Of a stretch of DNA of 63,641 nt, positions 16,364 to 19,516 are shown in pieces. The stretch covers positions 1 through 63,641 of the IMG/VR virus record IMGVR_UViG_3300024502_000002; one strand, written 5' to 3'. The notes beneath the pieces are model-generated. The model was given only the letters and a program-made list of their open reading frames with translations, did not search any database and was not told where the DNA came from. The number at the start of each line of letters is the position of its first letter. Within the stretch, counting starts at the first letter, position 1. The position numbers and the translations under genes are program-made. Origin of the DNA: a virus (Duplodnaviria > Caudoviricetes).

Positions 16364-16771
16364 TCAAGCGGAAAGACGCTGTTTCAACTGGTATTGGCGC
16401 ATCTCACTTTGATCGCAGATTCCTTGAAGCAAGTTCTGCGTGCCCTGCGAAGCCTTCTTCACCGCCTCATCAATCATGCCACAAAGGTCTTTTTCCCCTT
16501 TAAGAATGGCGCGGAAGAAAGGCTCGGGCTTTGTCTCGTCAGGCAGGATGTCGGACATCTTGGACGCCGCGATGTTGATCTTGGCGAGGCTCAACTTCTC
16601 AGTCCCAAGGCCAATCACACGCTCCACGGCGCTGTCGTAGGCCGCTTCATAATCCGGGTAAAGTTTGCCAAGGAACTTATGGTCCTCGAAAAAAGTCGGT
16701 CCTTTGATGACGTTGTGCGCCCGATGAGCAAGGAATTGAAGGGCGCGAAGCTGGGTGATGAGTGAGTCCAT
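16364..16771 (-). CDS. Ferritin/Dps-like four-helix protein
   Basis: AHRAHNVIKGPTFFEDHKFLGKLY...D..VER, Dps-like pattern. Confidence 0.78.
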   Translation of the reverse strand: MDSLITQLRALQFLAHRAHNVIKGPTFFEDHKFLGKLYPDYEAAYDSAVERVIGLGTEKLSLAKINIAASKMSDILPDETKPEPFFRAILKGEKDLCGMIDEAVKKASQGTQNLLQGICDQSEMRQYQLKQRLSA

Positions 16772-16950
16772 GAGGGAGGATACTCAAGTTTGCCGGATCG
16801 CAACTCGTTCATTCACGGGCCGTGGTTCCTTTTCAGGCAGCATCGACAGTCCAGTCATCAGCCGAAAACGATTGCCGGGGTGAATCTGCTGGAAACTACG
16901 ACGCTCCTCGCGGCGTTCCGACTCGGATTTAGGGGTGGCAAGTTGGTGGT

Positions 16951-17169
16951 TCATTTCTTCTTCGGTTTAACCCCTCGCTTCACCAGACCGCATTTCCCGC
17001 ACGACTTCTTTTCGCCACGGGTGAGGTGTTGGTAGTAAGCCTCGGTTTCCTTGCCGCAGTCGCAGCGACAAAGCCATTTGGAGTTTGAGTGTTCATTGCG
17101 TTCAAGGAAGCTGACTACTTTCAGACGGCCAAAGCGACGGTTTACGAGGTTTTTGGGAGGGTATGCCAT
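16951..17169 (-). CDS. Stand-alone N-terminal domain of AP2/HNH-associated endonucleases
   Basis: RRFGRLKVV...WLCRCDCG...KSCG; no nuclease domain. Confidence 0.75.
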   Translation of the reverse strand: MAYPPKNLVNRRFGRLKVVSFLERNEHSNSKWLCRCDCGKETEAYYQHLTRGEKKSCGKCGLVKRGVKPKKK

Positions 17170-17207
17170 TTAGGCGATACTTACGGTAATTTGAGGGGAT
17201 GGCAAGA

Positions 17208-17261
17208 AGAGAACCGTGTCGCTACTCCGAACGCTGCGCGTCGGAGAGCTGGGTGTTATGC
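17208..17261 (+). mobile_element. attC-like site 1
   Basis: AGAGAAC-CGTGTC-GCT(A)CTCCGA(A)CGC-TGC-GCG TCGGAG AGC-TGGGT-GTTATGC: R'' and R' cores, imperfect inverted repeat with two bulged bases. Confidence 0.75.
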
Positions 17262-17965
17262 AGAACGGAAAGAACAGCCCGCCCAAGGTATTCGGTGTAA
17301 GCGGGCGGGATGCACTCTTTCAGCCCCTCGCATGTCATCCAGTCGATGCCGTAGGCGAGCGGGGCGTTTTTCACGCTCTTCGGTTTCATCCCGAGGGCGA
17401 AGCGTTTGGCGCGGCTCGCCTTGCTGGCGGTCGTCACCAGAAGCGGGATTTGCGAGTGGTCGCAGGCGCACGGTGCCGCAATCGGAAAGCTCGTCTCGAA
17501 ATAGCGGTGCCTTTGCGTCCGCAGCCCGAACATCGAGCCGCAGAGCATCACAGGGTTTTCCAGTTCGTGCCGCGCCCCAGCTACGTTCTCGATGATGTAG
17601 GGCTTGCCCAGTTCGCGGAGCATCGCCCGCAGTTGCGGAATCAGCTTCGGATAGTTGGCGCGGTGAGCTTCCGGCGTCAGGTGAGAGTAGCCCTGGCACG
17701 GTGGCGAGGCGTGGATTGCGTCGTATTCGTGGCCATGATCGCGCAGGTATTCTAGGGCATCGGCCAGTATGAAGCGGTGTGGGTTGCGCGGTTGCGGTTC
17801 GATGTCCACGCCTGTTATATCGAAGCCCGCCCGAGCGTATCCGGCCCCCGCGCCGCCTTCGCAGCAGAAAAGGTCGAGCAAACGGAAAGACGGAGCATAA
17901 CAAGTCGCCAGAGGCAACGAGCCGCAGCCGTCCGTTTTCGATGGGTTCTCAGCGAGATTTATCAT
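17222..17965 (-). CDS. C5 cytosine DNA methyltransferase (cassette A)
   Basis: LDLFCCEGGAG (motif I), HASPPCQ (catalytic PC), IENV, RHRYF. Confidence 0.9.
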   Translation of the reverse strand: MINLAENPSKTDGCGSLPLATCYAPSFRLLDLFCCEGGAGAGYARAGFDITGVDIEPQPRNPHRFILADALEYLRDHGHEYDAIHASPPCQGYSHLTPEAHRANYPKLIPQLRAMLRELGKPYIIENVAGARHELENPVMLCGSMFGLRTQRHRYFETSFPIAAPCACDHSQIPLLVTTASKASRAKRFALGMKPKSVKNAPLAYGIDWMTCEGLKECIPPAYTEYLGRAVLSVLHNTQLSDAQRSE

Positions 17966-18009
17966 GGTTAGTATTCTGTGCGGCTCGCGCCTCAGCTTGG
18001 GTGTTCAGG
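17895..18009 (+). mobile_element. attC site 2
   Basis: GCATAAC-AAGTC-GCC(A)GAGGC..CGAGCCGCA / TGCGGCTCG.GCCTC AGC-TTGGGT-GTTCAGG; canonical 5/6-nt spacers; MTase ATG in the loop. Confidence 0.88.
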
Positions 18010-18068
18010 GCACTCACGAAAGTCTTTCGGCCTGCGTGAGTGCCCGTCACAGTGCGTTCACAGTGCGT

Positions 18069-18467
18069 TCACAGTTTCAGGCCGTCGGCGGTGGGTTCGA
18101 TCTTCGTGTTGCTCGGGTCTTTGGAGTTCGGATACGGGTTTTCCTGTGCTCCTGGGTTTTCTTCGTTGATGGCTTTTAGGTCCATCCCGAGCCACATCAC
18201 TGCCTCTTGCAGCTTAGTGACGCAGATGGAGCGTTCACGGCTTGCACGAGGGTTATCATCAGACGTGAGCCTTTCGCGCTTCGTGTCAGATGCGAGTTTG
18301 AGGCGTTGGATGATGGCGTCGATGTCGCGGCGCAGTTCTTTGTCTTGGATGATGGCGGTTTCGATTGCTGTCATGTTGTCGTTTGCGTTTTGGTTTTTAC
18401 TTCGGCAGCCTGGGGTGCCGTGCCCTGAACCATCGGCTGATGCCAACGGCTCGAAAGTATCTGTCAT
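18069..18467 (-). CDS. Acb2/Tad1-like helical-hairpin protein (cassette B)
   Basis: SRERSICVTKLQEAVMWL resembles the RExSLAxTKLxEAxMW motif of this family. Confidence 0.6.
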   Translation of the reverse strand: MTDTFEPLASADGSGHGTPGCRSKNQNANDNMTAIETAIIQDKELRRDIDAIIQRLKLASDTKRERLTSDDNPRASRERSICVTKLQEAVMWLGMDLKAINEENPGAQENPYPNSKDPSNTKIEPTADGLKL

Positions 18468-18515
18468 GTAAGCGGAGGTCTATCGCTCGCCGTCGGCATA
18501 GCCGGGTCGTTCAAC
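18424..18515 (+). mobile_element. attC site 3
   Basis: CCTGAAC-CATCG-GCT(G)ATGCC..CGGC / GCCG..GGCAT AGC-CGGGTC-GTTCAAC; ATGA stop/start junction in the loop. Confidence 0.88.
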
Positions 18516-18778
18516 CTCGCATCCACCTTTTCCAAGTAGCACTCCTTCATCGGATACTTGCCCTGAAGAATGCGGAAGATGAACTGGGGTTGAAAACCAA
18601 TCACCTTGGCGAGGTGGCTTTTTGACCAGCCTTGGCGCATGCGGAGCTGTTCAATGGCGTTGATGCGCGTTTGATTGGCTTTTTTTAGCAGTTCGGCAGC
18701 TTGGCTCTCAAGATTGGAGGCGCAAACAAACTCAGTGTGAATGAACGGGTGTTGGGACTGGATGTTGGGGAGGTTCAT
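18464..18778 (-). CDS. XRE-like HTH protein
   Basis: LRMRQGWSKSHLAKVIGFQPQFIFRILQG; C-terminus encoded by attC3. Confidence 0.72.
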   Translation of the reverse strand: MNLPNIQSQHPFIHTEFVCASNLESQAAELLKKANQTRINAIEQLRMRQGWSKSHLAKVIGFQPQFIFRILQGKYPMKECYLEKVDARLNDPAMPTASDRPPLT

Positions 18779-18790
18779 ATTGTGTTGCGA

Positions 18791-19516
18791 TTAACTATAT
18801 GGTGGTAAATCAGCTTGGTCAAGAACCCATCTAGGACTTTTTAGAATCATTTCGTTGTCACCTTCCAACAAGAAGCGGTCCCTGTGTCTTCCAAGAAAGA
18901 CTCTTTTCCTTTTGGCTAAAACGTCGATAATTTCATCGTCTATAAGAGATGAGTTATATTCAGCTACAGCATGTATGAAAATTTCATCAATAGATGCCTG
19001 AAGAGCAAGCAATCTACGGTCCGATATAATCTTGTCCAAAACCACATCGGCATTATCTACACTTTTATGAATCTCCCAAAAAATATCAATAAATCCCTTC
19101 ATCGCTTTTTCAGACCTTGATGCCAAGGTTGCCATCAAAGTATCGAATGAACGCTTCTTCTTACCCCTTTTGCCTTTGCATAGACCCCTAGCGTGAGCGT
19201 CCTTAATGTTTTGAACATTGGTTCCTAATTCAAGATGGTCTGGATTTGTGCAGACCTTATTGTCGCAGCGGTGCATTACGACCATACCATTAGGTATGTC
19301 TCCTTTATGGATCATATAGGACAACCTGTGGGCCAATACGTTTCTATTCTCCACCTTGAGTGTGCCATACCCATTTACCAACGACCCCTTCCAGCCCCAG
19401 CATTGACCTAATCCGGCATAATGATGATTAGACTGATCTGGCATGACGCCAGAGTCCCTATCAAGGTTGTAAAAATACAATTCACTACCATGCTCGATGA
19501 TTTTGTTTTTATCCAT
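18791..19516 (-). CDS. HNH endonuclease
   Basis: CWGWKG...AHRLSY...VMHRCDNKVCTNPDHLELGTNVQN. Confidence 0.9.
   Translation of the reverse strand: MDKNKIIEHGSELYFYNLDRDSGVMPDQSNHHYAGLGQCWGWKGSLVNGYGTLKVENRNVLAHRLSYMIHKGDIPNGMVVMHRCDNKVCTNPDHLELGTNVQNIKDAHARGLCKGKRGKKKRSFDTLMATLASRSEKAMKGFIDIFWEIHKSVDNADVVLDKIISDRRLLALQASIDEIFIHAVAEYNSSLIDDEIIDVLAKRKRVFLGRHRDRFLLEGDNEMILKSPRWVLDQADLPPYS

Follow-up and report, generated by a model that had tools for sequence, protein, structure and literature searches.

An apparent integrase-less array of inverted, translated attC cassettes at the end of a phage gene

Clusters of attC sites without an integrase, with methyltransferase genes among their cargo, are already known from virulent phages; in the part of the published account available to us, IntI1 recombined five of the six phage attC sites assayed, and phages were proposed to gain counter-defence genes through attC cassettes (Qi et al. 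2023, PMC9892861). Bacterial integron cassettes have been reported to encode anti-phage defence (10.1101/2024.07.02.601686, 10.1101/2024.07.02.601719), and in Escherichia coli with IntI1 cassettes were inserted at non-att genomic sites, termed attG (Loot et al., 10.1101/2022.09.11.507474). Here, we analyze an accessory operon in a complete virus record (IMGVR_UViG_3300024502_000002, Caudoviricetes; 63,641 bp with direct terminal repeats, referred to throughout as the window), in which two attC-like hairpins, attC3 and attC2, each precede a gene. In our assessment, this is quite likely a two-cassette integron-type array without an integrase (a cluster of attC sites lacking integron integrases, CALIN), whose cassettes are mobilized by a host IntI, lie in mirror image to ordinary cassettes and carry counter-defence cargo. 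An original prediction, made from the letters of this stretch, had placed the start and stop codons of inverted cassette genes inside three proposed sites, attC1 to attC3.

An attC site is defined as an imperfect hairpin of 57–141 nucleotides (nt) with conserved AAC and GTT ends, a core RYYYAAC/GTTRRRY, and two or three extrahelical bases (G and T) on the L'' arm of the bottom strand (PMC5027507). By sequence comparison, attC3 is a clear member of an integron attC family. A covariance model, R1, made solely from 29 distinct bacterial attC sites (from Verrucomicrobiaceae genomes encoding integron integrases; 92% mean column identity), matches the minus strand of the window at 18427–18512 with 74 bits (E = 5.7e-19), compared with 20 bits on the plus strand and 11.6 bits (E = 0.86) for the next, unrelated match. 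The family pattern derived from attC3 occurs once in the window against 0.00 occurrences expected (100 shuffles). With 92 nt, AAC at one end and GTT at the other, attC3 also falls within the size and terminus definition of attC. Single-sequence folding of the three stretches proposed as attC1 to attC3 gives z scores of only -0.6 to -2.0, and a general repeat search of the window reported an 11-bp hairpin and not the attC arms; the case for attC sites is therefore a comparative one.

The comparison extends to structure. We aligned 38 family members, 29 from phages and nine from bacteria, after one chance match (L144; compared loci carry L numbers and genomes G numbers) had been dropped by eye. 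The expression used for selection fixed only two conserved blocks and the AAC/GTT spacing, leaving the arms free, and the stem was drawn from one fold and then scored on the alignment. AAC and GTT are invariant in all 38 members, and the stem is 90.7% paired. Across the alignment, 87.0% of the stem cells are paired, as against 75.0% in shuffles (none of 500 as high) and 25–50% in slid controls. The covariation score is 0.277, compared with 0.098 in shuffles (again 0/500 as high) and 0.026–0.050 in slid controls, and nine of the 21 stem pairs change on both sides. The hairpin structure is under selection.

The second site, attC2, has both arms alignable to a second bacterial subtype (L345:796-887, z = 5.6; L354, z = 5.0), with none of 300 shuffles as good. 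Its outer end coincides with a homology breakpoint (18003), and the methyltransferase (MTase) cassette ends in seven nt, GCATAAC (17261–17255), that are the reverse complement of the inner 7-mer of attC2, GTTATGC. Its fold z scores are only -0.9 and -1.6. On these comparisons, we take attC2 to be a real, if diverged, member of the same attC family.

Features of the cassette region, in window coordinates (aa, amino acids; ORF, open reading frame; HTH, helix-turn-helix)
Feature	Coordinates	Strand	Details
attC3, imperfect hairpin, 92 nt	18424–18515	-	Outer core GTTGAAC (18515–18509); inner core GTTCAGG (18430–18424); ATGA overlap 18464–18467 in loop
attC2, diverged, longer loop	17895–18009	-	Outer core CCTGAAC (18009–18003); inner core GTTATGC (17901–17895); MTase ATG 17965–17963 in loop
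Cassette B mobile unit	18004–18509	-	From C of the AAC junction to AA before the next; attC3, Tad1-like gene and 3′ hairpin
MTase cassette mobile unit	17256–18003	-	Relatives without homology between ~18505 and 17257–17261
Insertion target, native HTH gene 3′ end ('attC1')	17203–17255	-	Small stem with bulge; TAG 17224–17222
Tad1/Acb2-hairpin-like ORF, 132 aa from loop ATG	18069–18467	-	Pfam PF24729, E = 8.4e-6, 26.3 bits against cut-off 27
C5 DNA methyltransferase (MTase) ORF, 247 aa	17222–17965	-	phrog_363, E = 8.5e-38, residues 25–236; FCCEGG motif I
3′ hairpin of cassette B, perfect 11-bp stem	18008–18045		Inverted repeat; fold z -3.4 and -4.1
HTH regulator, 104 aa	18464–18778	-	Weak Pfam HTH_31/HTH_3; phrog_1373, E = 2.5e-5
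HNH endonuclease	18791–19516	-	Pfam HNH_3, E = 1.4e-12
Downstream flank gene, 72 aa, CapR/HNH-associated small domain	16951–17169	-	Pfam PF21817, E = 0.0022; phrog_374, E = 2.7e-17

The ends of the units follow the same rule in both cassettes. Like the MTase cassette, cassette B ends in a 7-mer (CCTGAAC) that is the reverse complement of its own inner core, and here the complementarity extends to 11 nt; the extension is provided by the 3′ half of the hairpin at the end of the unit, which has no T-run after it. The last seven nt (nnnnAAC) are the reverse complement of the unit's own inner core (GTTnnnn) in 7/7 distinct arrays ending at the target described below, and in 17 of 21 adjacent family sites, or 16 of 17 when the cassette body is no longer than 900 nt. 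The adjacent sites were chosen by a regular expression blind to the 7-mer bases, and the rule held in 5/21 cases when the unit's own outer core was used as control and in 86/420 with shuffled partners. Such complementarity is expected of integron cassettes because the circular form restores the full R box, and we read it as the signature of a circular cassette. Automatic chaining of bare 7-mer pairs proved useless, the rule being strand-symmetric (859 chains per strand), and independently defined junctions were used instead. Between the stop of the Tad1-like gene and the hairpin, an 11-nt unit is exactly duplicated in tandem (18047–18068).

Read in gene sense, the region runs from the HNH endonuclease through the HTH regulator, the Tad1-like ORF, the hairpin and the C5 MTase to a small conserved gene. 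Relatives found through the HTH protein are 77–89% identical to the window up to ~18505, lose homology at ~18502–18508 and resume at ~17257–17261, with other DNA in between, and every joint in them, again in gene sense, falls directly after AAC. In two of these relatives (L064/L091) the site is empty: the HTH gene joins the target sequence directly, with no cassette. The same site occurs in six states, empty in L064/L091, with one cassette in L004 and one in L094, and with two units in the window, in L001/L002 and in L003/L005, and the cargo differs in each occupied state. The MTase cassette has a GC content of 0.60–0.63, compared with ~0.53 in its flanks. In L005 (4309–5049), a single 246-aa ORF stretches across two cassette-like units whose 5′ parts are paralogous and of which the second has no left arm; it looks like two cassettes fused after a deletion.

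The empty site also decides the status of 'attC1'. This stretch (~17203–17255) has no R1 match and scores z of only 0.5–1.6 against five attC-family sites. Since the cassette-free L064/L091 run the HTH gene straight into it, it is the native end of that gene and the insertion target; with no family likeness and a place as the gene's own end, it was rejected as an attC. Of the sites that were to bound the cassettes, attC3 and attC2 therefore stand and 'attC1' does not, and the MTase stop, once assigned to an attC, belongs to the native HTH gene end. Ten viral stretches share an identical 21-nt core of the target. The target is kept even in phage contigs with a different upstream gene (L089, L090, L092), and in L089/L092 its TAG is replaced by CAG. 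The conservation, beyond coding need, may point to a dedicated, attI-like docking site.

Cassette B can also be followed outside this site. L007 shares exactly 18512–18003 with the window (92% identity) in a different gene context, L006 shares 18512–18426 alone, that is, the hairpin, and the Tad1-like unit with its attC lies behind four different upstream sequences (window, L007, L011, L058).

The family is common in phages and is found in integron-bearing bacteria. In the phage loci compared, the attC3 pattern often occurs in two or three copies per locus; further viral contigs are positive, and a stricter expression still matches at least 25 phage contigs. Among species-representative genomes, multi-copy matches came only from Verrucomicrobiaceae (L156, L128, a Prosthecobacter metagenome-assembled genome, L159, and a Brevifollis one, L115), a result that covers 80 of the 120 matches listed. 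Across whole genomes, the pattern matches 26 times in G001 and 13 times in G002, whereas the reversed-pattern control matches once in G001 and not at all in G002. The integron integrase model TIGR02249 (cut-off 265 bits) scores 394.9 in G001, 378.3 in G002 and 402.2 and 365.4 in G004, and falls just under the cut-off in G005 (260.4), while none of 14 control genomes exceeds it. L366 has the standard layout, with five sites on the intI strand and no more than 2.7 kb from that gene. Taken together with the phage copies, the family makes a phage host in Verrucomicrobiaceae likely. In G001 and G002 (L156, L343–L354), the family forms many separate clusters on different contigs, one of which, in L156, directly adjoins a 467-aa housekeeping-like ORF. 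In both genomes intI lies at contig ends, and the assemblies are therefore broken by the arrays.

The orientation of the phage cassettes is the reverse of that in host arrays. The strand matched by R1 is the intI strand and is antisense to host cassette genes (the L156 ORFs lie opposite to the site orientation), and it thus corresponds to the attC bottom strand. In the phage the cassette genes lie on this very strand, with attC 5′ of the gene. Since the model strand is the coding strand, the phage cassettes are mirror images of ordinary ones: the gene is not on the top strand and the attC is not at its 3′ end. The original prediction had both cassette ORFs on the bottom strand and inverted relative to canonical cassettes; every gene of the region is indeed on the minus strand, and both the opposite-strand genes of host arrays and the layout of L366 bear out the inversion.

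Translation extends into the hairpin arms. Read in the AAC frame, 37 of the 38 family members, all nine bacterial sites among them, meet a stop codon within the loop; the in-loop stop is therefore a property of the family and does not imply a phage adaptation. Upstream of the sites, the AAC frame is the one that stays open longest in 17 of 24 informative phage cases, where 8 are expected, and in three of six bacterial ones; the left arms thus commonly code for C-terminal tails. In the window, attC3 supplies the HTH gene with its stop and its last 15 codons (from the AAC at 18511–18509), and the overlap of that TGA with the ATG of the next ORF can be read directly in the sequence. Among 29 phage sites, the cassette ORF starts in the loop in 13 (11 of these ORFs having at least 80 aa), in the right arm in nine and after the site in seven, and an N-terminal tag, M..(F/S)EPL..GS, is common to unrelated cargo proteins. 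Translational coupling by the sites would fit this arrangement.

Much of the translation scheme first proposed for this locus agrees with these results, namely that hairpin arms are translated and that the upstream gene is stopped in the loop. The four peptides assigned to the arms are correct: GCGSLPLATCYA corresponds to residues 13–24 of the MTase, EPLASADGSG to residues 6–15 of the ORF at 18069–18467, NTQLSDAQRSE to the MTase C-terminus and NDPAMPTASDRPPLT to the HTH C-terminus. The MTase ORF and its ATG have the coordinates originally given. The suggested use of the peptide tags as a search handle paid off as well, as a DNA handle derived from the tag found the phage contigs and the host clade, and unrelated proteins sharing the tag, which were to be looked for as a check, do exist. 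The proposal that both cassette genes start in attC loops survives for the MTase and probably fails for the Tad1-like gene, as set out below.

The assignment of the MTase as a C5 enzyme is solid: besides the motif and family match in the table, it has a PDB match to 3g7u (E = 5.6e-4) and 20.5 bits to PF00145 (cut-off 22). Its ends are borrowed, the first ~24–29 residues from the loop and arm of attC2, and the last 11 residues together with the stop from the native HTH gene end; homologues match residues ~26–232 only. A comparison of N-termini covered eight of nine loci, L362 being cut at the locus start. L358, L359 and L360, which show AAC...GTT palindromes by eye, and also L356/L357 have no start codon beside motif I, and their frame stays open upstream of that motif as far as an ATG or GTG. 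In L361 and L355, which are without such a palindrome, the start lies 3–5 residues before motif I. We conclude from this comparison that the MTase very probably starts in the attC2 loop; a TTG at codon 29 is a possible alternative start. Having no stop of its own, the gene reads through the junction to the TAG of the old HTH end, and the MTases of L358, L359 and L360 likewise read through into the next site.

The other cargo protein resembles Tad1/Acb2. The Tad1 chain 8kbb was matched with E = 0.01 from the single sequence and with E = 4.1e-5 from a 37-sequence profile (A3), over ~30 residues. An AlphaFold model shows two long helices in a hairpin (predicted local distance difference test score 81.9). 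On this evidence, the link to Tad1/Acb2 is of moderate strength. The family has 204 relatives among viral contigs; A3 found no match in five host-clade genomes, a negative that carries no weight. As for the start, only the window and L007 have the loop ATG in frame with the conserved core, and all compared loci share a Met just before that core, which in the window is residue 32 (18374–18372). Because the loop ATG is out of frame or stopped in L011, L049/L050, L058 and L015, the conserved start is probably Met32, outside attC3, giving a 101-aa product. More widely, none of 20 cargo proteins had a Pfam match, and PHROGs returned function-unknown families only, for one of six extra cargo proteins.

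A mechanism consistent with the observed family membership, cassette boundaries, target, empty site, circle signature, inverted orientation and frame arrangement can be proposed. The phage looks virulent, and its complete genome has no match at E ≤ 1 to PF00589 (tyrosine recombinases), PF01797 (Y1/HUH transposases) or PF00239 (serine recombinases). With no PF00589 match the locus is not a complete integron, and since no integrase match exists in the phage genome, the array counts as a CALIN. An IS200/IS605-type single-strand transposon was rejected, both for the absence of PF01797 matches and because each unit has one hairpin site and not one at both ends. Given a phage without a recombinase, we infer a host IntI as the mobilizer. 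It would act in trans during infection, excising cassettes and inserting them at a non-att site, namely the AAC (GTT on the plus strand) in the last codons of the phage HTH gene. There it would recombine the folded bottom strand of the circular cassette with the double-stranded phage target, between GAA and C, and units would be gained or lost through later events, either at the first junction or between attC sites. Translation of the upstream gene would then continue through the left arm, giving it a new C-terminal tail, and end at a stop in the loop. The cassette gene may also take its start from the loop, probably the case for the MTase, and the right arm then becomes an N-terminal tag; a cassette gene without its own stop would run through the next AAC junction and stop in the next site. 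The cargo may serve in counter-defence, by methylation against restriction and by a Tad1/Acb2-like nucleotide sponge.

Several observations weigh against this interpretation. Recombination of attC3 and attC2 by IntI is a prediction, with no integrase in cis, and no contig among those compared from public sequencing runs skips a cassette, so that no cassette-less joint was seen there. R1 gives no match to attC2 at E ≤ 10, and four of the 21 adjacent pairs break the 7-mer rule. The family cores are typically GSCGAAC/GTTCGSC, in which AAC and GTT fit the attC definition and the G beside AAC departs from RYYYAAC/GTTRRRY; likewise, a single base, a C, is bulged on the 3′ inner-core arm, where there is also a conserved G.T pair; the arm is as expected, but the usual G and T extrahelical bases are not seen. 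Set against the definition in the available part of PMC5027507, length, AAC/GTT, R-box logic and bulge position thus fit, while the fit is imperfect for the bases flanking the core triplets and for how many extrahelical bases there are and which they are. Near-identical copies of attC3 stand before unrelated genes in L006 (5997–6088) and L300 (8826–8918), which needs either homogenization within a phage pool or exchange inside the site or at the inner core. The assignment of the host to Verrucomicrobiaceae has the shared attC family as its sole basis. For the cargo, the Tad1/Acb2 assignment covers ~30 residues and stays just under the Pfam cut-off, and a fold search of the model with Foldseek yielded 0/57 matches at E ≤ 0.001.

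These copies before different genes would also suit an explanation without any integrase, in which the hairpins are regulatory or translational-coupling elements of phage mRNA and genes are shuffled by homologous recombination at the repeats. T4-type phages offer a precedent, as their promoter-stem-loop modules have been proposed to shuffle genes in this way. The sites do lie on the coding strand, and hence in the mRNA, their loops contain stops and starts, and no recombinase is encoded by the phage. However, exchange at repeats does not predict that unit ends are complementary to their own inner core, at the frequencies given above for arrays and adjacent sites, nor does it predict an empty site free of repeats. 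Moreover, in bacteria the same family makes up arrays linked to intI, in which the genes run the other way and the sites are therefore not in the sense of the mRNA. We consider this explanation improbable.

A phage enzyme that has escaped recognition might move genuine cassettes, and the neighbouring genes suggest a candidate: an HNH endonuclease is encoded directly upstream of the HTH gene and an HNH-associated small protein directly downstream of the array, and the lineage of this phage keeps the array at one fixed site. In cassette-carrying relatives, however, the HNH gene is absent or different. L001/L002 have no similarity to the window between 20564 and 18805, and for this reason the gene looks like a separate homing-type insertion beside the array. 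Its GC content is 0.39–0.44, as against ~0.53 for the genome. The phage sites, furthermore, match host attC sites that lie beside IntI, and to our knowledge conservative hairpin recombination is not known for HNH nucleases. Mobilization by such an enzyme therefore seems a rather remote prospect, and action of a host IntI is the reading we retain.

Contigs from public sequencing runs (X1, X2 and X4, of which X2 is independent and not the probable source of the record) bear on the integrity of the region. The stretch 16900–18456 is spanned without differences by a 2544-nt contig of X1 and a 1678-nt contig of X2. In both runs further contigs match 30 nt at 18427–18456 only and then diverge, one X2 contig contains 18426–18511 alone with foreign DNA on either side, and contig graphs in two runs branch at 18426/18427 and at 18511. 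A site of the attC3 type is repeated in the community, and the breaks fall at its ends. Contigs of X4, a metatranscriptome, cover four parts of 16900–18669 with no differences, and as DNA carry-over is possible they are not proof of transcription. Repeats of this family do break assemblies, both where intI and arrays sit at contig ends and where contigs branch at the site, and one could imagine an assembly chimera, or a host CALIN misjoined to a phage contig. Yet the genome is complete, with its terminal repeats, both runs span the region without differences, cassettes occupy this site, in conserved phage synteny, in relatives that come from other samples, and the genes are oriented opposite to those of bacterial arrays. 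A misassembly is thus very unlikely. Finally, the idea that GC-rich coding DNA formed these palindromes by chance, as the weak fold scores and the arms missed by the repeat search might suggest, is refuted for attC3 and attC2 by the R1 match, the covariation and the breakpoints at site ends, is practically negligible as an account of the array and holds for 'attC1' only.

The surroundings of the array contain a second kind of variable joint, at window ~16947–16954, represented by L004 3354–3635 and L003 4738–5081. In L003 and L004 the inserts at ~16952 are an extra gene of ~280–340 bp placed at an ATGA stop-start overlap and flanked by ATGAAC/ATGAAT direct repeats. This breakpoint was rejected as a further cassette junction, because the inserts have no hairpin site and are bounded by direct repeats, which makes it a different type of joint. 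The region of the 72-aa flank gene is kept in relatives from 17257 downwards. A ferritin-like (Dps-type) gene also lies in the accessory region (16364–16771, minus strand; Pfam PF00210, E = 3.9e-6). A comparison with INPHARED returned no relatives of this phage; all 75 matching records cover only part of the MTase gene, at 60–80% identity.

If the proposed mechanism holds, a lytic phage without a recombinase would swap small accessory genes precisely and in frame by means of the integron machinery of its host. The attC model together with the 7-mer circle rule provides a handle for mining phage metagenomes for cassette cargo, and the cargo, mostly without annotation, is a plausible source of new counter-defence proteins. 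Integron biology is extended to the little-studied clade Verrucomicrobiaceae, to a cassette design with the bottom strand as coding strand, and to a natural case in which a non-att site within a gene has received cassettes repeatedly. More tentatively, and as an idea that we find plausible without calling it probable, the integron could be viewed as borrowed: virulent phages of Verrucomicrobiaceae would keep a docking site in an early-operon gene, a host IntI would swap cassettes from a phage-specific pool of mirror orientation, and attC would act as a universal translational adaptor, which stops the preceding gene, starts the following one and preserves the frame at the AAC junction. Host integrons, which are reported to hold defence genes, and phage arrays, which would hold counter-defence genes, would then trade in the same recombination currency.

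In the literature searched, with subscription journals and supplements outside the search, we found no inverted, translated attC cassettes in phages, no recurrent in-gene docking site with an empty allele, no attC family common to phage arrays and host integrons, and no cassette that carries a Tad1/Acb2-like gene. Within the reach of this search, the inverted, translated architecture is new; the supplementary tables of PMC9892861, which lay outside the search, may list related phages.

Among described systems, the promoter-stem-loop modules of T4-type phages are similar in being short, structured, intergenic and at the borders of shuffled accessory genes; they carry promoters and have been proposed to act by homologous recombination. 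The present sites differ from them in the circle-junction signature and in belonging to an integron attC family. Sedentary chromosomal integrons such as the superintegron of Vibrio cholerae share with the host arrays sites that are similar within a clade, long loops, tens of copies per genome and an IntI in the genome; to judge from the available part of PMC5027507, the Verrucomicrobiaceae arrays depart from that type in their clade, in GSCGAAC/GTTCGSC cores, in a single bulged base and in clusters scattered away from intI. The attG sites resemble the landing site described here in being neither attI nor attC, in allowing expression from a nearby promoter and in the exchange of bottom strands. 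Unlike attG, as far as it is described in the accessible text (10.1101/2022.09.11.507474), the site here is a phage gene end reused across a phage lineage and is closer to a dedicated docking site. Integron defence cassettes are likewise small, streamlined genes of phage-bacterium conflict; in the portions of those reports at hand (10.1101/2024.07.02.601686, 10.1101/2024.07.02.601719) they are bacterial, whereas here a phage is the carrier, and counter-defence is suggested by both cargo genes that can be named. The closest relatives are the phage CALINs of PMC9892861, which have in common with this array attC-bounded cassettes, carriers that include virulent phages, no phage integrase and MTase cargo. 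As described in the available part of that report, their cassettes are mostly in the usual orientation, with some divergent sites ascribed to mosaicism. In the array described here, by contrast, it is consistently the bottom strand that encodes the genes, the site is 5′ of the gene and translated, the array lies in a gene end, the empty site is known, and the attC family can be traced to host integrons.

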